A DNA stretch of 32,000 bases from Horticoccus luteus (GTDB lineage Bacteria > Verrucomicrobiota > Verrucomicrobiia > Opitutales > Opitutaceae), in contig NZ_CP080507.1 in the NCBI RefSeq assembly GCF_019464535.1, positions 60,001-92,000 of the forward strand. The letters are read 5' to 3'. Position 1 is the stretch's first letter. Each line of letters begins with the position of its first letter. Both the position numbers and the translations under genes were made by a program. Of the stretch, positions 2,133 to 28,102 are shown one piece after another. Under the pieces are notes generated by a model. The model was not told the DNA's origin. It worked only from the letters and a program-made list of their open reading frames with translations, and did not search any database.

Positions 2133-2855
2133 ATGACACGTGCCTGCCTGACCTTCGCGTTGAGTGGACTGTTGCTGTTATCCGCGCCTCTCGCCCTCGC
2201 GGGATCGCCGGCGGATGTGGGACTCGCCCGCGAAGATCATCAGCAGGAGCACGAGGCGTTTCTGCAACGCGGGCGCAGCGGGCCGATCGGGGTGTTGTTC
2301 CTCGGCGACTCGATCACGGCGGGTTGGAAAAAGGTGCCGGACATTTGGGAGAAAAACTTCGGGGCGTGGGCCCCGGCGAATTTCGGGATTGGCGGCGACA
2401 AGACGGAAAACGTCATCTGGCGCATCGAGCACGGCGAACTCGACGGCCTCCATCCGCGCGTCGTCGTGCTGCTGATTGGCACGAACAATTCCGCGAAGAA
2501 CACGGCGCCGGAAATTGTGGGAGGGATTCGCAAGATTGTGGACGAGATCAAGGCGCGTCTGCCGGAGACGAAAGTGCTGTTGCTGGCGATTTTCCCGCGC
2601 GGGCCGCGCACGACCAAGACCGGCCAGGCGGAGGATTGGGAGAGCCGCATGGCGGTGATCAAGGCGGTGAACCGCGAGCTGCCGAAGCTCGCCGATGGGA
2701 AACGCGTGCGGTTTCTCGATGTGAATCACGTTTTCCTCGCGCCGGACGGCACGATTCCGAAGGAGCTTATGCCAGAGCAACTGCATCCGGTGCGCGCAGG
2801 TTACGAGCGCTGGACGGCGGCGATGATGCCGACGCTGCGCGAGATGATGCGGTAG
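2133..2855 (+). CDS. Secreted SGNH/GDSL-family hydrolase (PAF-acetylhydrolase-Ib-like esterase)
   Basis: Signal peptide MTRACLTFALSGLLLLSAPLALAG. SGNH blocks are present: FLGDSIT (Ser), GIGGD (Gly), LIGTNN (Asn) and a final EQLH block. In that last block Glu (2775-2777) sits where Asp of the usual DxxH is expected. Confidence 0.85.
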   Translation: MTRACLTFALSGLLLLSAPLALAGSPADVGLAREDHQQEHEAFLQRGRSGPIGVLFLGDSITAGWKKVPDIWEKNFGAWAPANFGIGGDKTENVIWRIEHGELDGLHPRVVVLLIGTNNSAKNTAPEIVGGIRKIVDEIKARLPETKVLLLAIFPRGPRTTKTGQAEDWESRMAVIKAVNRELPKLADGKRVRFLDVNHVFLAPDGTIPKELMPEQLHPVRAGYERWTAAMMPTLREMMR

Positions 2856-4212: not shown

Positions 4213-4803
4213 ATGAGCCTGATCAGCGACGCCCTGAAAAAGACCGAGCAACTTCGCCTGGAACAGGCGGGCGTGCTCGCGCCGGGAATCCGCGGTCCGG
4301 CGCGCACACGGCGGGCGGTGCAGGCGGGGACTTTCGGCCAGCCGTCGTCGAAGCTGTTGTATTGCAATGTAGCGTTGTTGTTCGTCGCGCTGATTTTGAT
4401 GGCGGTCGTCCTGCATCGGTCGAACGGCGCAGGGTCGCGCGTTGAAGCGTCGGCGGATTCCGCGGTGGCGACTGATCCGGCGATCGCGGCGCCCGCAACA
4501 ACAACGGCGGTGGCGCCACGGGAGGCGGCGGGCACGGCGGCGGTTGCGCCGACGGCGGAAAGCCCGGACGCGACGGCGCCGGGAATGGTTGAGCCGTTCT
4601 ACGATTTGACGGGAGTGACGGTGATGGGGCAGGCTACGCTGGTGGGACTTATCCGCCGCAGCGATGGACGCAGTTTTTGGGTCAATGTGGGCGAGACGCT
4701 CGGCGGCGTGACGGTCGTGAGCTACGATGCGGCCGCGGAGCGCGCGACGCTGCGGGTGGATGGCCGGCAGGAAATCGCTGCGATGCGCAACGCCTCACCG
4801 TGA
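4213..4803 (+). CDS. Single-pass membrane protein with a GspB-like N-terminus and a PilP/GspC-like C-terminal beta domain (hypothetical)
   Basis: Track ORF 4189..4803. I prefer ATG 4213 because the product then begins MSLISDALKKTEQ, the N-terminal signature I associate with GspB/ExeB-type accessory proteins. It has one TM (LLYCNVALLFVALILMAVVL) and an Ala/Thr/Pro-rich linker. It ends in a ~70-aa beta-rich domain (FYDLTGVTVMG...FWVNVGETLGGVTVVSYD...ATLRVDG). The family call is from memory only. Confidence 0.6.
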   Translation: MSLISDALKKTEQLRLEQAGVLAPGIRGPARTRRAVQAGTFGQPSSKLLYCNVALLFVALILMAVVLHRSNGAGSRVEASADSAVATDPAIAAPATTTAVAPREAAGTAAVAPTAESPDATAPGMVEPFYDLTGVTVMGQATLVGLIRRSDGRSFWVNVGETLGGVTVVSYDAAAERATLRVDGRQEIAAMRNASP

Positions 4804-5561
4804 GCCGCTCCGCTCCGCGCAAAGGTCAACGGCGCAGCGCACGCCGTCCCAAACAGAGCGAGCAGCCCGCGACGGGCAAAAGCCCGACGTGGCGGGAGCG
4901 GCTGCGGAACGTGACGAAGCGTCAGTGGATTTCGGCAGCCGTGGTGGTGCTGGCGCTGATCGGCATCGCGTGGCTTTACCATCACATCGACATCGATGCG
5001 GTGCACGACCGGGCGCAACGGCTCAACGGCTGGCTGGTGTTTGTGTTGATCACGGTGCTGCCGCTGCTGGGCTTTCCCATCACGATTGCGCACGCGGTGG
5101 CGGGCGTGAAATTCGGCATGGGGCTGGGCCTGGCGCTCGTGTCCGTCTCGATCCTGCTGCAACTGCTGATCAGCTACGGGCTCGTGCATCTGTTTCGCGA
5201 TGTGTTTGCGCGGCGTTTGAAGAAAGTGCGGCGCCAGCTTCCGAAGGGGGCGAACGGACCGGTGACGCTGTTCACCGTGCTGCTGCCGGGCGTGCCCTAT
5301 TTCGCGAAAAACTACGTGATTCCGGTGATGGGCGTGCCGCTGCGGACGTTTCTGTTGTGGGCGTTTCCGGTGCACGTGGCGCGCTCGAGCATCGCGATTT
5401 TCTTCGGCGACAAGAGCGATGATCTCACGCCGGGGCGGATCACGTTTTTCGTGATCTACGCGATCGTGATCACCGTGGGTTGCGGGTGGGCGTTTCGACG
5501 GCTGCGGTCGCAGCTTCAAGGTCCACAATCAAAGGAAGATGATCCGAAGCGCGGTGCGTGA
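4800..5561 (+). CDS. TVP38/TMEM64 (DedA-superfamily, SNARE-associated) integral membrane protein
   Basis: Track ORF 4677..5561, but its first 41 codons overlap the upstream gene. An in-frame GTG at 4800 overlaps the upstream TGA (GTGA, 4800-4803). The product has a basic N-terminus followed by 5-6 hydrophobic helices. The family core PLLGFPITIAHAVAGVKFGMGLGLALVSVSILLQLLISYGLVHLFR is present. Confidence 0.8.
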   Translation: MSRSAPRKGQRRSARRPKQSEQPATGKSPTWRERLRNVTKRQWISAAVVVLALIGIAWLYHHIDIDAVHDRAQRLNGWLVFVLITVLPLLGFPITIAHAVAGVKFGMGLGLALVSVSILLQLLISYGLVHLFRDVFARRLKKVRRQLPKGANGPVTLFTVLLPGVPYFAKNYVIPVMGVPLRTFLLWAFPVHVARSSIAIFFGDKSDDLTPGRITFFVIYAIVITVGCGWAFRRLRSQLQGPQSKEDDPKRGA

Positions 5562-7938
5562 GGTCGTTGCGTGGCACGAAGACGTGGGTCGGCTGAAAGT
5601 GCGCGGAGACGAAGATGTGATCGATGCGCATAAACGGGCGCAGCGAGGAAAACGTCTTTAACGGCCGGTGTTCGCGGCGGATCGTCTGCACGTCGCGCAG
5701 GCGCCGGAGCGCGAGAGAGTAGGGCGCGCTGCCGGGGCTGAGATTCATGTCGCCGCAAATCATCACCGGCTCGGCGTCGATCACGGGGCCGAGCCATTCG
5801 TCGCTGAGGAGCGCGCGCATTTGCAGCAGGCGTTCCTTGGGGCCGAGGCCGAGGTGGGTCGTGACGATGTTGACGGTGGCTTCGCCGATGCGCACGCGGC
5901 CCCAGATCGCGGAGCGCGGTTCGCGCCACCAGCTCTTGTGATCGGCGGGCAGCAGCGCGCGCCGCACGACCTCGACGGGCCAGCGGCTGAGCAGGGCATG
6001 CCCGTAGTGTTCCTCGCCCCGGGTGATCGTGGGGCAGAACACGACGTGCAACCCGAGCTCTTCGGCGATGATGCGGGCCTGATCCTCGGCGCGGGAGCGT
6101 CGGCGGCCGAGGTCGAGTTCCTGCAGCGCGACAATGTCGGGCTCGTGCGCACCGATGACGCGTGCGATGCGGCGCGGCGAGACGCGGCCATCCATGCCGG
6201 AGCAGCCGTGCGTGTTGTAAGTCATGACGCGCAAGCGTAATTCGGTGCCGCGTGTGACGATGGCGCGGGGGATGGCTTCGCGGCCGAGGTGATGGCGCGC
6301 CGCGGCGCGCAGGGCGGAGGGGCGCACGAAGTCAGTGGATTCCGCCGGCAGGCGCGTGCGCGGCGGCAGGAGGAGAAAGCCGCGGGATTCTTCGGGGCCG
6401 AAGCCGCCGTGCGCGCCATGCTCGGCCGCGAACGACCACGGGATGTCCCACGGCACCCAGCCGAAGGCGATGAGATCGCCGGCGTTGGGGCGGCCGCAAA
6501 AATAGACGAGATCCTTGGTGATTTCCGCGGCGATCGCGGGCGCGTGCGGCAGCAGGGCGGGCAGCTCGTCGGGGATGCGTGTTTCGCCGTGGCCGTGCAC
6601 CCAGATGAGCTGTTCGCCGCGCCGCACGATGACGCCGGGCACGTGAAATTGATCGACGAGCCGCCGCGCAATGGCGTGCCGCTGATCGTCGGTCAACGGC
6701 TCGGCGAAATAGATGTGGCCGACGGGGCCCATGTCGGCGACGACGAGACCGTGCGCGGCGACCGTGCCGGCGATCGCTTGCTCCAGATTCGGTTTCGAGA
6801 CCGGCCGGGCGCGCGAGCCGACGAGGCCGCGCACGGTGCGTTCGGGGATGCGTTTCGTCCACGCCGGGTCTTGTTCGCGGGCGAGTTCGAGGCAGGAGCT
6901 GACGGCCGCGGTGAGGCCGCCGGGATAGACGAGCGGATACGGGCGGGTGTGTTCCTGTCCATGGTCGGAGAAAATCCACACGGCGTAGTCGCGGCGATTG
7001 GAGCGGTGCGCGGCGCGCACGAGGTGCTTGATGGCGCGATCGATGCCGTGCAGCGACCAGTGCGCGAAACGGGAACCGGGGCCGCGGGCGTGGGCCTGTT
7101 CGTCGTAGCCGACGAAGTTGAGATGCACGATCGGGAGCCCGCGCGTGACGTCGATCTGCCCGCTGATCATGAGCAATTCGCGCAGGCCGACGCCGATGAA
7201 GACGCGGGAGGCGAGGAGGGTGAGTTCGAGGCCGACTTTGCGGCCATGCACGATGCCTTTGGCGGCATCCCAGACGGCGACGGCGAACTCGACGATCAGC
7301 AGCCACGCGATGCGGATCGCCGAAGGCAGGTGAAAAATGATGAAGAGGAAAATATTCCGGATTTTGCCGGTGCGCCACATGTCGCCGAAGCCGATGCTGG
7401 CGGCGCAAAAGTGGCTTTCATCCTGGCCGGCGCCACCGGTGTAAATGTTGGACCAACTGCTGCCGCCGGTGAGGAGACCTTCGCCGCCGACCGCGGCGCA
7501 ATCGGCCTCGGCGGACTTGGCCCATTCGGAATCATACATCCGGCCCAATTCGCCGCGCTTGCGGTCGAAAAAACTAAACGCAGGCACGGCGGAGTGAACG
7601 CCGTAGAACAGCTCGGCCTGCACCGCCGGCGTGGTGGAAGGGATGCCGGGATAGAACGTGCGCATCTCGTAACCCTCGCGGCGAATGAGGCGTTGCAGGA
7701 AAGGCATGCGGCGATGCGCGAGCGCGCGCTCCAGTTGCGTGCGCGCGAAGCCATCGATCTGGATGAGAAGGAGGCCGGGCTCCTCGCTGGTGCCTTCGGA
7801 CGGCGTGAGGCCGAGGTGGCGGATGGCCCACTCGCTGCGGCTGAGGCGACGCCGCCAGCGGCGGGCGATGGATTCGATACCGGCGAACATACGGGGCCGA
7901 TCAGGAGGCGGCCGCTTCGCCGTCGCTGCGCATGGCAT
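5470..7938 (-). CDS. Fusion protein: alkaline-phosphatase-superfamily phosphodiesterase (NPP-like, with an internal membrane hairpin) + endonuclease/exonuclease/phosphatase (EEP) domain
   Basis: One uninterrupted 822-aa ORF. Residues ~55-525 carry NPP/AP landmarks: IQIDGF (metal Asp), GIPSTTPAVQ (Thr nucleophile), NFVGYDEQAH, IFSDHGQ, AEHGAHGGFGPEE..GFLLL. A hydrophobic insertion lies at residues ~195-258 (nt 7165-7356: IFLFIIFHLPSAIRIAWLLIVEFAVAVW, LELTLLASRVFIGVGL). Residues ~568-806 (nt 5521-6237) carry EEP landmarks: VMTYNTHG, DIVALQEL, VTTHL, CGDMN, RIDHIF, SDHLPL. An alternative start at ATG 7890 (MFAGIESIARRW) would remove the 38-nt overlap with the GT4 gene. Confidence 0.85.
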   Translation of the reverse strand: MPCAATAKRPPPDRPRMFAGIESIARRWRRRLSRSEWAIRHLGLTPSEGTSEEPGLLLIQIDGFARTQLERALAHRRMPFLQRLIRREGYEMRTFYPGIPSTTPAVQAELFYGVHSAVPAFSFFDRKRGELGRMYDSEWAKSAEADCAAVGGEGLLTGGSSWSNIYTGGAGQDESHFCAASIGFGDMWRTGKIRNIFLFIIFHLPSAIRIAWLLIVEFAVAVWDAAKGIVHGRKVGLELTLLASRVFIGVGLRELLMISGQIDVTRGLPIVHLNFVGYDEQAHARGPGSRFAHWSLHGIDRAIKHLVRAAHRSNRRDYAVWIFSDHGQEHTRPYPLVYPGGLTAAVSSCLELAREQDPAWTKRIPERTVRGLVGSRARPVSKPNLEQAIAGTVAAHGLVVADMGPVGHIYFAEPLTDDQRHAIARRLVDQFHVPGVIVRRGEQLIWVHGHGETRIPDELPALLPHAPAIAAEITKDLVYFCGRPNAGDLIAFGWVPWDIPWSFAAEHGAHGGFGPEESRGFLLLPPRTRLPAESTDFVRPSALRAAARHHLGREAIPRAIVTRGTELRLRVMTYNTHGCSGMDGRVSPRRIARVIGAHEPDIVALQELDLGRRRSRAEDQARIIAEELGLHVVFCPTITRGEEHYGHALLSRWPVEVVRRALLPADHKSWWREPRSAIWGRVRIGEATVNIVTTHLGLGPKERLLQMRALLSDEWLGPVIDAEPVMICGDMNLSPGSAPYSLALRRLRDVQTIRREHRPLKTFSSLRPFMRIDHIFVSAHFQPTHVFVPRNDLTHRASDHLPLIVDLEAATAAVETPTRNPR

Positions 7939-9196
7939 CGATCACGGCGGTGGCGGTCGAGGCGAGGAGGTTCCATTCGACCTGGAGGCGATTGAGGAAG
8001 GAACTCCACGGGCTCTGCTCGTTGACGAGGCGTTCGCGGCGGGTGGCCCGGCGGACTTCGCGATAGAAATCCAACGCGAGCTCGGCGCAGTGTTCGCGGG
8101 AAAATTGTTTCGCGGTCTCGCTGGCGGTGGCGGCGAACCCCGCGCATTCCCGCTTTTGTTCGCGGAGGCGGGCGAGGTGGCGCGCGAAATCGTGGACGGT
8201 GGCGTCGGCGGCGAGGAGGAAGCCGTTGCGCTCATGTTGCACGACTTCGCGCACGCCGTTGGCATCGAGCGCCACCACGGGGAGGCCGGCGGCCATCGCT
8301 TCGGCGAGCACCATGCCCTGCGTCTCGCTGAAAGAGGCGAACGCGAAGACATCCATGGCGCGATAGGCGTCGTGCAGCGGGCGGCCGGTTTGTTTGCCGG
8401 CGAGGATGAGGCGGTCGCCGACGCCGGCTTTCTCGCAGACGGCGCGCACATCGGCTTCCGAAGGCCCGCCGCCGACGAGGAGAAAAACGGCTTCGGGAGC
8501 GCTCCGCAAAAATTGCGCGATGGCTGCGGTGAGGAAGGGCAGATTCTTCTCCGGCGCGAGGCGGCCGACGTGGCCGATGACAAAGGCCGCAGGCGGAATC
8601 TTGAACTTGCGCCGGGCGCGGGCGCCGTCGCCGCGGGCGAACGACGCGAGGTCGATGCCGGTCGGCACGACTTTGATCGGCGTGGTGACGCCGCGGCTGC
8701 GGATGAGTTGCTCGATGCTTTCGCTGGGGGCGATGACGCCGTCGCAGAGGTTGGCAAATTCGGTGGAGAGGGAGATCGCGAATTCCTTCAACGCGGGCGA
8801 ATCGAAGGGCACGTAGTGGGTGTAATCTTCGTAACGCGTGTGATGCGTGAAGATGACCGGCGCGTTTTTATCGGCGGCGATGCGGAGCGCGGTATCGCCG
8901 AGGAGAAACGGATGGTGGGCGTGAATGATGTGGGCGTTGAATGCGGTGAGGCGGTCGGAGAGGCCGGCGGCGAGCGGCAGGCGCACGGAGAAATCGCTGC
9001 CGTTGAAATTCTGGATGGCGGGCACGCGTTCGACGACGGATTCCTGGCGCGCGGGGAGCGGCGGGCCTTCGAATTCGGGGGCGACGACGAGCACGCGGTG
9101 CCGCCGCCGCCGATATTCCTCGGTGAAGGTGCTCACGGAGCGGGCCACCCCGCCGACATGCGGCAGGTAGGTGTTGGTCATCATGCAAATGTTCAT
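7901..9196 (-). CDS. GT4-family (group 1) glycosyltransferase
   Basis: The track ORF 7901..9616 is over-extended; its first 140 residues are Arg/Pro-rich shadow. From ATG 9196 the product starts MNICMMTNTYLPHVGGVARSV. It has GHVGRLAPEKN and the EX7E motif ETQGMVLAEAMAAGLPVV. Its start overlaps the upstream stop (ATGA, 9193-9196). Confidence 0.9.
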   Translation of the reverse strand: MNICMMTNTYLPHVGGVARSVSTFTEEYRRRRHRVLVVAPEFEGPPLPARQESVVERVPAIQNFNGSDFSVRLPLAAGLSDRLTAFNAHIIHAHHPFLLGDTALRIAADKNAPVIFTHHTRYEDYTHYVPFDSPALKEFAISLSTEFANLCDGVIAPSESIEQLIRSRGVTTPIKVVPTGIDLASFARGDGARARRKFKIPPAAFVIGHVGRLAPEKNLPFLTAAIAQFLRSAPEAVFLLVGGGPSEADVRAVCEKAGVGDRLILAGKQTGRPLHDAYRAMDVFAFASFSETQGMVLAEAMAAGLPVVALDANGVREVVQHERNGFLLAADATVHDFARHLARLREQKRECAGFAATASETAKQFSREHCAELALDFYREVRRATRRERLVNEQSPWSSFLNRLQVEWNLLASTATAVIDAMRSDGEAAAS

Positions 9197-11454
9197 GGAG
9201 AAAAGGGGAGGAGGAACGTCGTCTCGCGCGTGCCAGCGGCGATGACGCGCGGCACGCAGCCGGGCACGCGGACCTCGATGATCGGCGCGGCGCCGCGCCA
9301 CAGGGCGTCGAGCGCGAGGGTCACGCCTGCCGTGGTCGCGGTCAGGCGCACGCCGACGCGGCCGAAGGGCGTGAGCGTGCGGCCGAGCGAGACGGGGGCG
9401 CCGGGTTGCAGCCAGGCGCGGCGGAGGCCGGCGCCGAGGACGAGGCGGTCCGGCTCTTCGCGCACGAAGCAGTTGCGGATCATCATGAGCCAGTCGGCCG
9501 CGGCCCAGATGTGCTGGCCATCGCCCATGCAGCCGCCGCCGGTGCGCGGATGAATGGCTTCGGGCCACTGGCCGGTGGGCGAGGTGAGCTGCGCCACGCA
9601 ATCGATCAGCGCCCACGCGGCGTCGAGTTCGCCCGCCCGCAAACGCACCTGCGCGAGATGCAGCGTGAGGTAGGCGTTGATCCCGGAATGGATCATGTTC
9701 TGAAAGAAGCCGCCGTTGAACGTGCTGTGGTCGCGCAGGTAATCGGCGGTTTTCAGGAGGCGCGGATCGCCGGGGGAAAAGAGCTGCAGCGGGTAGTCGG
9801 CGACGAGGTTGCCGACCGCGCCGGAATCCATGCGGCGTTTCGGCGAGGCGGGAATCGCGCCGGGGAAACGGCGTTGCGGGCCGCTGGGGAAAGAGCGCTC
9901 GATCGTGGCGAGAAACTCATCGGCTTCGGCGCTCCATGCGTCGGCGTGGCGCGGGTTGCGTTCGCGCCAGAGTTGCGCGGCGCAGCGCAGCCCGGCGACG
10001 CTCCAGAAGTCGTCCCAATAATAAAAATCGTTGGGGCCGAGATGCTCGGCGCTGAAGCCGGCGGGGAGCAGGCCGGCTTCGGGGCGGCCGGAGTCGCGCG
10101 GGAGGCGTTTCTTGGTGATCCAGCGCGCGCCTTTGGCCACCGCGTCGAGCCACGCGGAGGGGAGCGGCTCGCCGGTGAGCGCGGCGAAGCGGGCGTAACT
10201 CCAGATGGCTTCGCCGTTGGAATCCCATTCGCCTTCCTGCGAAAGAAAGTAGCCGTCGCGGCGCTGGCGCGGCGCAAATTCGCCGAGCGCGCGCCGGGTG
10301 CGCTCGACGCCGCCGAGCGTGAGGAGGGCGTTGAGCAGAAAGGCGGCGTCGCGAAACCAGAAGCGTTTGTAAGTGTAAGGGCCGGGATAGACCTCGCCCG
10401 GCGCGTGGAGCACGAGGTTGGCCGCGGCGGCATCGAAGAGGCGTTGGATGAGCGGATCGGGGACCTCGAGTTTCGCGAGCGGGGCGAGGGCATCGGTCCA
10501 CGATTCGGTTTGGGCGAAGACGGGGCGTTTCTTGGGTTCGAGCTCGTTGTAGATCGGCGCGCGCACGACCAGCGCTTCGTCGCCGAGGGTTTCGAGGGGG
10601 AAGAACGCGGCGGCGGTGGCCATGCCGATGCTGTCGCGCACGTGGCGCGGCGAGGCGGTGTCGCCGAGGCGGTGCGAGACGTCGCCGGCTTGATAATGCG
10701 ACAACACATGGCGCGCGGGGCGGCAGTCGAACTCGATGGGATGGCGGGCGTTGACGAGCCAGCCGCGGTCTTCGTCGGCGACGGCGATTTCTTCGAGGAA
10801 GCTGACGCCTTCGGGATTGTAGGGGCGGAGGGCGACCACGAGGTCGCCGTCGTCGGCGCCTTCGACGCGCGCGGACACGCAGCAGTGCGGTTCGTGCTGA
10901 TCGAGGCAGAGCGTGGTCTCGGTGACGATCGTGACGCCATCGCGAGTGGCGCGGGACTGCACGCGCAGCGCATCGGTGAGCGCGAGGGTTTGCTCGAACG
11001 TGGCGAGTTGCGAGGGGAACAGCGGCGGGCCGGCGCGCGGGACGAACCAGAAGTCGAGGGACCAGCCATCGAAGAGCGGCGTGACGAGGCCGCGGGGATC
11101 GACGATGGGATAATACGGCACATCGGGGACGCCGACGGCGGTCCAGTTGCGATGCGTGAGGTTGATGTGGCTGAACGAAAACGCGCGCGGGATGAAGGAT
11201 TCGTCGGCGGGGTTGAACTGGCGGTCGACCCAATAAGGCCACACCCAGTCGAGGTTGTTCTGAATGGCCTTGGTGTTAACGAGGCCGCGCGCGTGGAAGA
11301 GCATCCCGGCGCGCAGGAGCTCGATCGGCTCGGCGACCTCGGAGGGTTGCGCAAAGCCGCGCAGTTGCGCCAGCAGCGCAATCGGATCCAAAAATCCGTA
11401 GGCGCGCGCGGCACGGGTGATCAGATAGCGGATAGGCCACGATTTGAGCAACAT
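9193..11454 (-). CDS. Six-hairpin (alpha/alpha)6 glycoside-hydrolase-like protein (GH15 / glycogen-debranching-like C-terminal domain) with a ~330-aa unassigned N-terminal region
   Basis: Track ORF 9193..11559. I place the start at ATG 11454 (MLLKSWPIRYL). The C-terminal half has GH15-type barrel landmarks: YKRFWFRDAAFLLNAL, EGEWDSNGEAIW, FYYWDDFW, GDGQHIWAAADWLMM. I cannot place the N-terminal half (NNLDWVWPYWVDRQFNP..FIPRAFSFSHINLTHRNWTAVG) in any family. Confidence 0.75.
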   Translation of the reverse strand: MLLKSWPIRYLITRAARAYGFLDPIALLAQLRGFAQPSEVAEPIELLRAGMLFHARGLVNTKAIQNNLDWVWPYWVDRQFNPADESFIPRAFSFSHINLTHRNWTAVGVPDVPYYPIVDPRGLVTPLFDGWSLDFWFVPRAGPPLFPSQLATFEQTLALTDALRVQSRATRDGVTIVTETTLCLDQHEPHCCVSARVEGADDGDLVVALRPYNPEGVSFLEEIAVADEDRGWLVNARHPIEFDCRPARHVLSHYQAGDVSHRLGDTASPRHVRDSIGMATAAAFFPLETLGDEALVVRAPIYNELEPKKRPVFAQTESWTDALAPLAKLEVPDPLIQRLFDAAAANLVLHAPGEVYPGPYTYKRFWFRDAAFLLNALLTLGGVERTRRALGEFAPRQRRDGYFLSQEGEWDSNGEAIWSYARFAALTGEPLPSAWLDAVAKGARWITKKRLPRDSGRPEAGLLPAGFSAEHLGPNDFYYWDDFWSVAGLRCAAQLWRERNPRHADAWSAEADEFLATIERSFPSGPQRRFPGAIPASPKRRMDSGAVGNLVADYPLQLFSPGDPRLLKTADYLRDHSTFNGGFFQNMIHSGINAYLTLHLAQVRLRAGELDAAWALIDCVAQLTSPTGQWPEAIHPRTGGGCMGDGQHIWAAADWLMMIRNCFVREEPDRLVLGAGLRRAWLQPGAPVSLGRTLTPFGRVGVRLTATTAGVTLALDALWRGAAPIIEVRVPGCVPRVIAAGTRETTFLLPFSP

Positions 11455-11702
11455 GCGGGAGTCTTCCCCTTCATTGTCCGCTTGGAGCGTCCAAGGTGCC
11501 TGCGCGGCGGGTTTTTCCCGGCGTGCGTCGCTGCGCACGGCTGGGGCGCGCACGCGCATCAGGCGCGAGTTTTAACAGGTTTGGCGGCGCGTGCGGCGCT
11601 CGCGCGCGGTCCGCAGCGTGGGGCGTCCCAGCTCGCGTCAAAGAAAGCTGGCCGCGCCGGGGCGCGCAGAGGGGCGCCGGCGCCGCGGGCAACCGATTGC
11701 GT

Positions 11703-12164
11703 TCAGCGCTCCGATGAAGCGGGCTGGGGCGCGTTGGCTGCGAGAGCGGTGGGCGTGAGTTCAGCCAGGACGGGGCGGAGGGTTTCCGGCGTCGGTGGCT
11801 TCACGAGGTAGCGGCGGATGCCGAGAGTCTCGGCGCGGGCGCGATCGCTGTTTTCCGCGGAGGAGGTGAGAATAAAGACCGCGAGGTCGTGCCAAGCGGG
11901 ATGGGCACGAATGGCCGCCAAGACATCGAGGCCGTAGATGTAGGGCAGTTTGAGATCGAGAAACACCGCGGCGGGCGCGACGTGCTCCTTCGCTTGCGCG
12001 GCGCAACCGGCGAGGTAATCGAGCGCCGCCTGGCCGTCGCCGGCGATCCGCACAGGCCGGGTATTCCCGGCGAGGCGGAGCGCGCGTTGCATGAAGAAGA
12101 CGTCGTCTTCGTTGTCTTCGACCAGCAGCAAGGGCGCCAACGGGTTGAGGAGGCCGGCGCTCAT
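11703..12164 (-). CDS. Stand-alone response-regulator receiver (CheY-like, no output domain)
   Basis: 153 aa. Receiver landmarks: LLLVEDNEDDVFF, VFLDLKLP (phospho-acceptor Asp), ILTSS, YLVKP. The start ATG overlaps the stop of the upstream kinase gene (ATGA, 12161-12164). Confidence 0.9.
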   Translation of the reverse strand: MSAGLLNPLAPLLLVEDNEDDVFFMQRALRLAGNTRPVRIAGDGQAALDYLAGCAAQAKEHVAPAAVFLDLKLPYIYGLDVLAAIRAHPAWHDLAVFILTSSAENSDRARAETLGIRRYLVKPPTPETLRPVLAELTPTALAANAPQPASSER

Positions 12165-14863
12165 GAGCGGGAGGCGAGGGACAGCTCGATCCAGAACCGG
12201 CTGCCGGAGACGCCGTCGGAGTGCACGCCCACGGAGCCGTTCATGCGCTCGACGGCTTTGCGCACGATGGCGAGACCGATGCCGGTGCCCTCGTAGGCGT
12301 GTTCGGGGTGCACCCGTTCGAACAGGCCGAAGAGGCGCGACTGATGTTCGGGTTTGATGCCGATGCCGTTGTCTTCGAACCAGAGCCGGCCGCGATCGGG
12401 AGCGGTGCGCTCGAAGGCCACGCGGATGCGCGGACGCGATTCGGGTGGGACGAATTTGACGGCGTTGCTCAAGAGATTCGACACAACCTGGCTGAGCGAC
12501 GGTTCGTGGCCGATCACTTCGGGCAGCGGACCTTCGACGGCGATTTCGGCGCGCTCGGGGCGCATGTCGGGATATTGCTGCACGACCTCGTGGACCAGTT
12601 TCTCCAAGGAAACCGGCTCAAGGGCGAGGTCGCGGCGGTTCAGACGGCTATACGTGAGCAGGTCTTGAATGAGCCGGTCCATGCGGGCGCCGCTGCGCAC
12701 GATGCGGCTCAGCAGCATCCGGCCGTCGGGGCCGAGGCGTTCGCCGTAATCTTCGAGCACGACCTCGGCATAGCCGCGCATCGCGCGGACGGGGGCGCGC
12801 AGATCGTGCGACACGCTGTAGGAAAACTCCTGCATCTGCGTGACGGCTTCCTGCAGCGAGGCGGTGCGTTCGGCGACGAGTTGTTCCATGGCCTCGGCGC
12901 TGCGGTGGCGTTCCACGGCAAAGGCCACTTGCGTGGCGATGGTTTCAACGGGTTGCAATTCCGCGGCGGAGAAGACGTGCGGCGCGTTGTAATACACCAT
13001 GAACTTGCCCAGCAGCCTCTTCTCCAGAGTAAGGGGAATGAAGGCGAGGGCGTGGATGCCTTCCGTGCGCAACGCCTGTTTGAGAGGCGCGGGCAGCTGA
13101 TCGGCGAGGTCGATGTTATCGATGTAGATCGGATGCGCATCGGTCGTGTGATGAGCCCACGGGGAATGGCCTTCCACGGCTTCGCAATAGGCGGCCGAGA
13201 GGCCGCTCGTCGCGACAAATCGCATGACCTTCTGATCGTCGAGCAGGAGGATGGCGGCGCGATCCGAACGCTGGCATTCGTAGATCGCGCGGAGCGCTAC
13301 GGGGTAGATTTCGTTCAGCGCGTCGGCGCGATTGACGTGTGAAACGAGTTCGTAAACGGCGCGTTGCCGCGCTTCGGCGTGGCGGCGGTCGGTGATGTCG
13401 CGGGCGATCTTGGAAGCGCCCACAATCTGGCCGTTGGCATCGCGCAACGGGGAAATGGAAAGCGAGATATCGACGAGAGAACCGTCTTTGCGCTGACGGA
13501 CGGTTTCGAAGGAACTGATGCGTTGGCCGCGGCGGATTTGAGCGATGAGGTGGTCCTCTTCGCGGAGGCGGTCCCGCGGCAGCAGGACCGTGATGCTTTG
13601 GCCGATCATCTCCTCCTCGGTGTAACCGAAGATGCGTTCGGCACCGCGGTTCCACGTCAGGATGCGGCTCTCGAGGGTCTTGCTGATGATCGCGTCCTCC
13701 GACGAGGTGACGATGGCGGCGAGGCGCCGGCTCACCAACTCGGACTCTTTTTGCTTGGCGAGTTCGTCCTGCAACAGATGCGTGAGGCGGACGGTTTCTT
13801 GTTCCCGTTCGCGCAGCCGCGCCGCCGTGGACTGCATCGCCGTGGCGACGAAATCGATCTCCTGCAGGCCGGGCGGCCGTGGCGGAGGAGGCAGGCCCTG
13901 GCCCAGGGCTTCCGTTTCGGCCACCAGCCCGGCAATGCTGGTGGAGACTTTGCGGCCGAGCTGACGCGTGAGGATGAGCGCGACGAGGACCAACAGCCCG
14001 GACAACGCGCCGCCCAACCACAAGACGCGGCGGGCCGACGCGAGGATATCCACCTCGGGAGCGCCAATCGCCACACTCCAACCGCAGACGGGCGAGCGGC
14101 TGTAGGCGGCAACGACATCGATTCCCTCCAGCGTGCGGCTGTGCATGATGCCTTCAGGCGTGGTGGTGGTGGCCTCGACGATGTCGGGCGTGGCCTTCTT
14201 GCCGGCGAATTTCTCCGCGCCGCGATTCCGCGCGGTGATCGTGCCCGTGCGATCCACGACCGTCACGATGGCTCCGGGCAGGAAACGCTCGACGGCGATC
14301 GCGCGCGCAAACGCACTGGGCTGGATCACATAATGAAGACCGTAGAGGAGTTCGCCGTCGCGCAAAACGGGCACGCTCACATTGACGCAAAAACTCTTGG
14401 CAGTCGTGCTCCAGCGGACGTCGGAAAAATACGTCTTCTTCTGGCGCAAGGCGGCCCAGATCTCGGGCGTCGGCGTGAGATTGGGAAGGGGCTGGCCGCG
14501 CGGCAGCCGGGTGTTGACCCATTCGTGGCCTGCGGCGTCGGTGACGACGATCCAGCGGTCCCGGTCGGGCGCGAGGCTTCGGGCCTGGGTGTCGAAGGCG
14601 GCGAAGTCGCCGCGTTGCAAGGTGCCGGAAATGGCGAGGCCTTTAAGCAACGCCTCCGTCTCACCAAGTTGCCGGTCGACCAGTGACGACAACGCACGGG
14701 CGGTGCCGACGAGATGGCGGCCAGCGGCGGTGCGTTGATTGAAATAGGCTTGCGCGGTGAGCACGCCGACGAGGAGGAGCGCCGTCGCAGTGATGCCAGC
14801 GACGAGCCAGCGCAGCCGATTACGCACAGAATCGGAGCGAAGAGTGTTGAGCGACTGGAGCAC
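12161..14863 (-). CDS. Sensor histidine kinase (TM - periplasmic Cache-like domain - TM - PAS - GAF - HisKA - HATPase)
   Basis: 900 aa with a GTG start at 14863. There is an N-terminal TM, a ~250-aa extracytoplasmic domain and a second TM ([18 protein letters not shown]). A PAS domain follows ([23 protein letters not shown]...[14 protein letters not shown]...ASKIARDIT). A GAF-like region is next. Then come the H-box [17 protein letters not shown]-box LLSNAVKF, G1 FEDNGIGI and G2 [18 protein letters not shown]. Confidence 0.9.

Positions 14864-24268: not shown

Positions 24269-28102
<3,834 letters not shown>

Follow-up and report, generated by a model that had tools for sequence, protein, structure and literature searches.

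Here we describe a cassette of three same-strand genes in Horticoccus luteus (Opitutaceae, Verrucomicrobiota) that, judged by comparison of sequences, is widely distributed, tightly conserved and uncharacterised, is built round a new six-hairpin protein family and is linked to membrane proteins of the TVP38/DedA type. The cassette lies within nucleotides 60,001-92,000 of NZ_CP080507.1; this whole stretch of 32,000 nucleotides is called the window below, and its positions are numbered 1-32000. On the minus strand the cassette encodes, first, GHL, a six-hairpin glycosidase-like protein of 753 aa (9193-11454), then a retaining GT4 glycosyltransferase of 431 aa that resembles Mgs and GpgS (7901-9196), and finally an 806-aa double phosphodiesterase, NPP::EEP, in which two catalytic domains are fused (5470-7890). 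From the plus strand, the gene for a polytopic membrane protein of the VTT/TVP38 type (DedA superfamily) converges on the cassette (GTG start at 4800 or 4911, end at 5561). We tentatively read the three enzymes as a module at the cytoplasmic face that would build and remodel the head group of a glyco(phospho)lipid, with a DedA-type protein as its flippase, a reading that we consider plausible and still somewhat short of probable.

A cassette conserved across phyla

Gene order was compared around the 80 best GHL loci, and the denominators given for gene order and gene presence count the loci with enough sequence to judge. The order GHL, GT4, NPP::EEP on one strand is found in 44/66 loci, spanning five phyla. 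In Opitutaceae-type loci, GT4 directly follows GHL in 22 of 23 cases, the fusion is present in all 23 and the full set of three in 22/23; the corresponding figures for loci of other phyla are 38/50, 24/43 and 22/43. The three-gene loci outside the Opitutaceae type come from Desulfobacterota, Gamma- and Alphaproteobacteria, Planctomycetota, Nitrospinota and Verrucomicrobiales, and protein identity there is only 34-57%. The four-nucleotide ATGA overlap of GHL with GT4 is retained in 46/64 loci across phyla, and in 46/47 one open reading frame (ORF) encodes both NPP and EEP. Smaller sets also occur, namely GHL with GT4, GHL with the fusion, GHL alone, and a VTT gene with GHL only. Carriers are often marine or halophilic (Marinobacter, Haliea, Thiohalophilus, Desulfosalsimonadaceae). 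An initial annotation of this DNA had named in advance, as the finding that would tell against its proposal, a lack of conserved co-localisation of these families in other genomes; co-localisation is instead seen across phyla, and it includes the link to VTT/TVP38 proteins.

That link takes several shapes. A VTT gene lies at most 1.5 kb away in 44/80 loci and in three layouts: on the same strand directly upstream (20 loci), on the same strand downstream (5 loci), or downstream in convergent, overlapping orientation (19 loci, Opitutaceae-type). The 20 upstream cases include all six of the six Marinobacter loci, where VTT is the sole partner of GHL. Furthermore, the VTT proteins encoded upstream and those encoded downstream fall into two distant homologous subfamilies (hhalign probability 95.7%, E 1e-8), which together with the three layouts suggests that the association arose repeatedly.

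Within H. luteus, all five genes considered here, including that for a 196-aa bitopic membrane protein on the plus strand (4213-4803), were confirmed at the positions given, and conserved homologues mark them as genuine. The overlap of the GHL stop with the GT4 start, ATGA at 9193-9196 on the minus strand, can be read directly from the DNA, as the initial annotation had done, and is taken as translational coupling. The second junction turned out differently. The GT4 stop, TGA, occupies 7901-7903, and the fusion has in-frame ATG codons at 7938 and 7890; the methionine encoded at 7890 is invariant as Met1 in 31 orthologues, and in L081, the locus of the nearest relative (82% identical, and used here to stand in for comparisons of the H. 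luteus locus), the gene call for the fusion begins 8 nt past the GT4 stop. Because the orthologues and this gene call back the start at 7890, the junction is a 10-nt gap, and the overlap proposed there earlier falls away. At their 3' ends the genes for VTT and NPP::EEP do share coding sequence in convergent orientation as first annotated, over 92 nt (5470-5561); the shared stretch is also 92 nt in L081, and it measures 46-127 nt across 19 Opitutaceae loci.

GHL, a six-hairpin protein outside the known families

GHL is 100% identical to the H. luteus hypothetical protein K0B96_00285, and searches of the window protein against Pfam, NCBIfam and PDB sequences gave no match. Its assignment to the six-hairpin class came solely from structure prediction and Foldseek. 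The AlphaFold2 model (pLDDT 78.8, pTM 0.84) has a helical, poorly modelled N-terminus (residues 1-100), a beta-sandwich at about 110-300, an (alpha/alpha)6 barrel at about 330-665 and a C-terminal beta-sandwich at 666-753. Foldseek places this model nearest to GH94 cellobiose phosphorylase (8.8e-15) and the bacterial GH15 glucoamylase 1lf6 (2e-14; TM scores 0.55/0.60 over 703 columns), followed by glucodextranase and GH65 phosphorylases and, lower down, GH116 and GH95, all at 11-14% identity. GHL thus shares the architecture of GH15, GH94 and GH65 at the level of the predicted fold: bacterial members of these families (1lf6, 1ug9, 8hob, 4ktp) show the same three-part arrangement at Foldseek E values of 1e-14 and TM scores of 0.54-0.60, and GHL carries a GH15-like YxxWxRD motif. 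It differs from them in that low identity, in an additional, conserved N-terminal segment of about 100 residues and in an invariant cluster of Arg and His. With GH116 and GBA2-type glucosylceramidases GHL has in common the fold class of beta-sandwich plus (alpha/alpha)6 barrel (Foldseek 3e-9 to 1e-8), a much weaker relation than that to GH15 and GH94, and GH116 enzymes are retaining. GBA2 itself is cytosolic and membrane-associated and takes glucose off a membrane lipid.

The earlier label of a GH15-like six-hairpin glycosidase therefore holds for the fold and fails for sequence membership: the window protein has no match to the GH15 model PF00723 even at E<=10. Among 37 members of the GHL family, PF00723 gives weak matches in four (best 5e-4) and the GH116 Pfam model in two, and scattered members weakly match Pfam models of GH78, GH15, GH95, GH63-like and GH116 enzymes. 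A cross-phylum GHL profile run against the PDB yields sub-threshold matches only, located on the GH15 YxxWxRD motif. The conserved W-D-D and W-P-E positions appear to resemble the acid and base regions of GH15. Across the family D411, D481, D645, R102, R210 and R540 are invariant, and E632, H589 and H648 nearly so; the conserved acidic residues appear compatible with an active glycosidase, and the conserved Arg/His set would suit an anionic substrate or a phosphate co-substrate.

The initial annotation had also left an N-terminal half of about 330 aa unassigned. Most of it can now be placed as the standard beta-sandwich N-domain (about 110-300); the first hundred or so residues stay unexplained. 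This stretch (residues 1-105, encoded at 11140-11454, minus strand) is among the most conserved in the Opitutaceae homologues, with many invariant positions and the motif DWVWPYWxERQxxP...NLTHRNWT, and it has the lowest pLDDT of the model, 35-57. Its folding may depend on a partner or on dimer formation, and one inference is that it completes an active site across a dimer or docks a partner.

The family is large, with 2752 clusters at 50% identity and representatives in at least 591 species genomes. Seven long relatives that were examined for fused domains showed no Pfam domain. GHL probably defines a new CAZy-type family, one of considerable size without a relative in Pfam, in NCBIfam or among solved structures.

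A GT4 enzyme closest to lipid-acceptor transferases

The identity of the second protein as a GT4 glycosyltransferase is borne out by above-threshold matches to PF13439 (115 bits) and PF00534 (109 bits) and by an EX7E motif (E291...E299), both glutamates of which are invariant in a cross-phylum set of 35 orthologues. A match to the GT4-conflict model PF20706 (31 bits) lies beneath these much stronger generic ones. The best NCBIfam model is that of the alpha-monoglucosyl-diacylglycerol synthase Mgs (NF049988), matched over the full length at 145 bits, with lower scores for MshA (118 bits) and the GlcNAc-phosphatidylglycerol synthase GpgS (NF053787, 95 bits); the best PDB relative is MshA (1e-17). 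Mgs is the best match of all 35 orthologues, none of which comes near its cut-off of 400 bits, and at <=1e-30 the orthologues hit Mgs in 35/35 cases, the GlcNAc-phosphatidylglycerol synthase in 29/35 and MshA in 25/35. As candidates for outright equivalence, Mgs and GpgS were both rejected at their curated cut-offs (145 < 400; 95 < 480). The closest relatives nonetheless consistently appear to be transferases with lipid acceptors. The initial annotation had also named close similarity of the GH/GT pair to characterised enzymes of a known pathway as a finding that would tell against its proposal. No such similarity was seen, as GHL belongs to no family and GT4 reaches 145 of 400 bits for Mgs and 1e-17 for MshA, so that the proposal withstood this check as well as that of co-localisation.

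A fused double phosphodiesterase with a hydrophobic hairpin

The third protein had been described as a dual phosphodiesterase fusion of an alkaline-phosphatase-superfamily domain and an EEP domain, and its profile matches agree: PF01663 scores 45 bits (threshold 23) and PF03372 81 bits, with PF23226 as a further match. The alkaline-phosphatase-superfamily domain, encoded at 6271-7890 on the minus strand, is of the NPP type. Its nearest solved relative is the Xanthomonas NPP (2gsn), with which the two-metal motifs D...T...DExxH...DH...H align; across phyla, the residues D46, T87 (the nucleophile), D263, E264, H267, D309, H310 and H494 do not vary. The match is a distant one (E about 1e-3), and the domain differs from the Xanthomonas enzyme in having a hairpin, in lacking a signal peptide and in its fusion to an EEP domain. 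NPP enzymes cut pyrophosphate and phosphodiester bonds.

The hairpin, a hydrophobic helical insertion at residues ~177-250 (7141-7362, minus strand) seen in both hydropathy and the model, peaks at 2.11 on the Kyte-Doolittle scale in H. luteus and is the most hydrophobic segment in 25/25 cross-phylum orthologues, at 1.5-2.5. It carries the invariant residues E201 and D208, and residues 176-250 are modelled as helices. We presume that it serves as a monotopic membrane anchor or as a lipid-binding lid.

The EEP domain (5470-6270, minus strand) has its catalytic residues invariant (N19, E51, D174, N176, D217, D243 and H244 in domain numbering). Its nearest solved relatives are uncharacterised bacterial EEPs (1e-16), with Tdp2 and nocturnin at 3e-7, beta-hemolysin at 5e-6 and sphingomyelinase C at 1e-4; no sphingomyelinase is among the Foldseek top 50. 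Placement in a sphingomyelinase or lipid-phosphodiesterase subgroup was rejected, other EEPs being closer than sphingomyelinase C, and a specifically sphingomyelinase-type assignment, one of the lipid-phosphodiesterase types that the initial annotation had listed for EEP enzymes, is not supported. Nor is a role of the first domain as a membrane enzyme moving phospho-head groups: it is a cytoplasmic NPP type, and an LtaS/EptA/OpgB type was rejected for want of a PF00884 match and of an N-terminal transmembrane bundle or signal peptide.

By hydropathy analysis and inspection of N-termini, GHL, GT4 and the fusion have no signal peptide and, the hairpin apart, no transmembrane segment. Lacking export signals, the three enzymes should act on the cytoplasmic side.

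Membrane proteins on the opposite strand

By profile, the assignment of the convergent gene to TVP38 is borderline. The window protein scores 31.3 bits against PF09335, below the Pfam gathering score of 33.9, whereas its L081 orthologue (76% identical) has VTT_dom among its precomputed Pfam matches, and a VTT partner from Proteobacteria reaches 80 bits. Hydropathy shows several hydrophobic segments in the window protein, as in a polytopic protein.

The 196-aa protein upstream of it has a single transmembrane segment. The earlier label 'GspB-like' finds no profile support: as GspB/T2SSB the protein was rejected, with no model match at E<=10 and no type II secretion genes among the window ORFs scanned, and at E<=0.01 the only family hit is a chance-level match to MamS (E 0.004). 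It is 41% identical to a neighbouring gene product in L081 (12340-12975), where its N-terminus MSL[IV]SDALKK.EQ.RLE and about 60 C-terminal residues are kept and an Ala/Thr-rich middle varies. Searches of the 80 loci for relatives, including one with the N-terminal motif MSLISDALKK, found none. By these comparisons the gene is genuine, appears to be of genus level only and lies outside the conserved cassette. Its proposed coupling to the VTT gene can be seen in a GTGA at 4800-4803, which rests on a predicted GTG start, and is at odds with L081, in which 107 nt separate the two counterparts.

Regulation and neighbours of the cassette

Upstream of GHL we found a bipartite, promoter-like motif, GGCACYTT-N13-14-GGACAAT, at 18-30 nt from the start codon. 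In H. luteus it reads GGCACCTT-N14-GGACAAT (11473-11500, minus strand), ends 18 nt before the GHL start and occurs once in the window against 0.07 occurrences expected. The motif recurs at the equivalent position, and nowhere else in the locus, in 11 other Opitutaceae loci (L003, L004, L006, L008, L010, L011, L014, L015, L020, L023 and L081). The cassette thus has its own putative promoter element, which looks like a promoter for an alternative sigma factor of the extracytoplasmic function (ECF) type. Its first half resembles sigma-E/ECF -35 boxes, and it does not look like a sigma-54 site. A scan with promoter and terminator consensus sequences gave nothing above chance and no sigma-70-like site. 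Outside the Opitutaceae, the search for a common upstream motif returned similarity at genus level only, and the kinase/regulator pair upstream of the H. luteus cassette is not conserved between loci. We also looked for Pho boxes within 350 nt upstream of VTT-GHL operons, allowing up to 4 substitutions, and found no credible match in 20 regions, most of them proteobacterial; the Opitutaceae motif is itself unlike a Pho box.

Individual loci carry further genes in or beside the cassette; each of the lipid-enzyme, stress and solute neighbours among them is a single case. In L048 (Omnitrophota), a 502-aa protein with an acyl carrier protein domain and a PlsC-type acyltransferase is encoded between GHL and GT4 (5968-7476), and L070 has a DUF374 gene in or beside the cassette. 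In the Marinobacter loci (L034, L037, L049, L055, L059, L063) the VTT-GHL pair is followed by EamA-family transporter genes, and a gene for a YegS/DAGK-type lipid kinase lies 1-3 kb downstream of GHL, these domains being confirmed with Pfam in L059 only. A fusion of trehalose-6-phosphate synthase and phosphatase (OtsA/OtsB-type) stands directly upstream of GHL-GT4 in L035 (Desulfobacteraceae; 7117-9504), and in L051 (Omnitrophota) YfdX and HSP20 genes flank GHL-GT4 (9027-9959 and 13604-14242). The OtsA/OtsB-type, YfdX and HSP20 neighbours hint at a stress or osmotic context. An anti-phage defence system was also considered and was ruled out, as PADLOC models gave no match to any of the five window proteins.

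A possible role in glycolipid metabolism

The initial annotation had proposed a build-and-trim system for a membrane phosphoglycolipid or a periplasmic glycan. The lipid half of that proposal is the best supported of the readings that we weighed, unproven as it is; a periplasmic glycan is disfavoured because the three enzymes have no signal peptides and no transmembrane spans beyond the hairpin. The lipid framing gains support from the matches of the GT4 orthologues and from the conserved NPP hairpin, and the lipid enzymes encoded in or beside the cassette in L048, L070 and Marinobacter point the same way. Gene anatomy, folds, catalytic residues, the lack of export signals and genetic linkage are observed, and every catalytic role in the scheme that follows is one that we infer.

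The product would be a glycosylated glycerolipid, either a glycosyl-diacylglycerol or a glycosyl-phosphatidylglycerol. GT4 would transfer a sugar from a nucleotide sugar to diacylglycerol or phosphatidylglycerol. The NPP::EEP protein, anchored by its hairpin, would cut phosphodiester bonds of lipid head groups, and so might yield diacylglycerol from a phospholipid in the manner of a phospholipase C, or trim a phospho-linked part of the product. GHL, an inverting hydrolase or a phosphorylase in this scheme, made in a fixed ratio with GT4 and possibly in a complex with it, could cleave, phosphorolyse or transfer the sugar on the lipid. Shifting the lipid between the leaflets of the membrane would then fall to the VTT/TVP38 protein. 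Because VTT and GHL stand alone in Marinobacter, GHL probably acts on a lipid that can also be made by other enzymes.

Several observations weigh against this scheme. The substrate assignment draws on a sub-threshold resemblance (145 against 400 bits for GT4), and MshA, whose acceptor is soluble, is also a good GT4 match, in 25/35 orthologues. NPP substrates include nucleotides and nucleotide sugars, and sphingomyelinases (5e-6) are no nearer to the EEP domain than Tdp2 and nocturnin (3e-7) or a mannosyl-6-phosphatase. The NPP hairpin could be a lid instead of a membrane anchor, and the lipid-related neighbours belong to isolated loci. Furthermore, the cassette is modular, existing as GHL with GT4, GHL with the fusion, or VTT with GHL only, which argues that its steps need not form one linear pathway.

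A more far-reaching form of the proposal is one that we regard as doubtful: that GHL stands at the head of a new family of glycoside hydrolases or phosphorylases acting on lipid-bound sugars, that together with GT4 and NPP::EEP it makes an undescribed class of glyco(phospho)lipid in at least ~590 species, and that a TVP38-type DedA protein is the dedicated flippase. We found no published description of this gene combination in the full-text literature, coverage of which was incomplete, so that an earlier description is possible.

Alternative explanations

Perhaps the cassette instead runs a cycle of a soluble glycoside, a compatible solute or small oligosaccharide; we think this rather unlikely, and yet it is the alternative that survives best. 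GT4 would add a sugar to a small phosphorylated acceptor, in the manner of MshA and sucrose-phosphate synthase, NPP::EEP would dephosphorylate the product, GHL would hydrolyse or phosphorolyse glycoside no longer needed, and the VTT protein would be unrelated or a transport partner. MshA is indeed a strong match of GT4 (118 bits; 25/35 orthologues), marine or halophilic organisms are common among the carriers, models of mannosylglycerate-hydrolase-like and GH15 enzymes are weakly matched by a few GHL members, and the invariant Arg and His of GHL would fit an anionic substrate or phosphate. An OtsA/OtsB-type fusion upstream of the pair in L035, and HSP20 and YfdX around it in L051, would also suit this idea, but these are single loci. 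Against a soluble product stand the conserved hydrophobic hairpin of the phosphodiesterase and the recurring linkage to VTT, the sole linkage in Marinobacter, and the best and most consistent relatives of GT4 take lipid acceptors. Known solute pathways use phosphatases of the haloacid dehalogenase (HAD) type, not NPP::EEP.

Salvage of sugars from polyprenyl phosphates appears improbable. Here NPP::EEP would cleave sugars linked to undecaprenyl pyrophosphate or undecaprenyl phosphate (Und-PP-sugar or Und-P-sugar), with GHL shortening the glycan and the VTT protein carrying undecaprenyl phosphate (C55-P) back across the membrane in the manner of UptA. The ability of NPP enzymes to cleave pyrophosphate and phosphodiester bonds would serve such a pathway, and all the parts lie at the cytoplasmic face. 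UptA, a member of the DedA superfamily, flips C55-P (PMC11474028). The VTT proteins of the cassette are, however, of the TVP38 type and distant from one another, and the GT4 orthologues match WcaL, WbaZ and PglJ far worse than enzymes of lipid head groups; no other glycan-assembly genes (Wzx/Wzy, initiating transferases) were found close by among the large ORFs of the window or as recurrent neighbours at the other loci.

Remodelling of lipids under phosphate starvation, an analogue of PlcP-Agt and a special case of the glyco(phospho)lipid reading that we favour, is a quite improbable form of it. Working as a phospholipase C, NPP::EEP would free diacylglycerol and recover phosphate, and GT4 would turn the diacylglycerol into a phosphorus-free glycolipid. 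GT4 is Mgs-like, the two phosphodiesterase domains could between them strip a head group to free phosphate, and PlcP often shares an operon with an Agt that makes MGDG and GADG (PMC4796936). We demoted this idea because the search for Pho boxes was negative in all 20 upstream regions. The Opitutaceae promoter motif, being unlike a Pho box, also speaks against it, as does the absence of pst/pho genes beside the cassette in the window or recurrently in the loci, and GHL and VTT have no place in the PlcP-Agt scheme.

Chance adjacency without a common function, which the unrelated flanks (nadA, nadC, a two-component system) and the variation of regulators between loci might suggest, is contradicted by the synteny, with order, strand, four-nucleotide junction and fusion kept over five phyla at only 34-57% protein identity outside Opitutaceae-type loci, and can hardly be entertained.

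Comparison with known systems

Returning to the glyco(phospho)lipid module that we favour, the closest systems in logic are, by analogy, gpgSDF and hexSDF, with PlcP-Agt also close. The gpgSDF genes of Pseudomonas aeruginosa, for glucosaminyl-phosphatidylglycerol, and hexSDF of C. difficile combine a cytoplasmic GT4 enzyme, a cytoplasmic head-group modifier and a predicted flippase (PMC12713373). The cassette likewise pairs a lipid-type GT4 with modifiers and a proposed polytopic flippase, and GpgS is the second most consistent GT4 match (29/35). The modifiers differ, being a six-hairpin GH-like protein and NPP::EEP in place of a deacetylase, and so does the membrane partner, VTT/TVP38 of the DedA superfamily in place of AglD2/YbhN of UPF0104; at 95 bits against a cut-off of 480, GT4 is no GpgS orthologue.

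PlcP belongs to an enzyme family other than that of NPP::EEP. In PlcP-Agt, a phospholipid phosphodiesterase and a transferase that makes glycosyl-diacylglycerol share an operon, a system widespread in marine bacteria (PMC4796936; PMC8528852). Both systems pair a phosphodiesterase with a glycosyltransferase, Mgs-like in our case; no Pho boxes were found for the cassette, and PlcP-Agt has no GH-like or VTT component. For the membrane partner, the precedents are the DedA-superfamily lipid transporters PetA, for phosphatidylethanolamine (PMC10193950), and UptA, for C55-P (PMC11474028). The cassette's VTT-domain protein resembles them in its domain and in the flipping or scrambling of lipid proposed for it, and differs in being of the TVP38/TMEM64 type.

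Wider context of the window

On one side the cassette region is flanked by nadC, a GDSL lipase gene and nadA, and on the other by a two-component pair whose histidine kinase has Cache, PAS and GAF domains and whose second gene encodes a response regulator. In keeping with the initial annotation, the large ORFs of the window, several of which matched nothing, showed no genes for sugar nucleotides, Wzx/Wzy or ABC exporters, and Rfam and tRNA scans of the window gave no matches. The GDSL-family lipase gene (2133-2855, plus strand) sits between nadC and nadA; in L081 no such gene is present at that place and nadA and nadC are 113 nt apart, so that the lipase gene looks like a recent insertion.

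Long ORFs of 568-801 aa run antisense to genes at 9406-11811, 6289-7995 and 7685-9553 (all plus strand); they are the usual artefact of high GC content and no additional genes. Further away, a hybrid histidine kinase of 1277 aa (24269-28102, plus strand) carries Reg_prop/Y_Y_Y propeller repeats and a receiver domain and is unrelated to the cassette; this architecture is that of polysaccharide-sensing hybrid two-component systems. The GC content of the window is 62-72%, and its GC skew is +0.1 to +0.2 in nearly all 1-kb bins, independent of gene strand and unusually high in magnitude. Given the low number of the locus tag, the uniformly positive skew fits a location on the leading strand near the origin.

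Significance

What bacterial DedA/TVP38 proteins carry is a live question, and the recurrent linkage of a TVP38-type gene, in three separate layouts, to a fixed set of three enzymes gives a testable handle on one substrate. If the more far-reaching form of the proposal is true, no bacterial TVP38 protein would have been tied to a defined substrate before this one. Should the product be a new glycolipid or phosphoglycolipid, it would add to the membranes of Verrucomicrobiota, Desulfobacterota, Planctomycetota and marine Proteobacteria a component of wide occurrence, with possible consequences for envelope charge, stress tolerance and lipid biomarkers.

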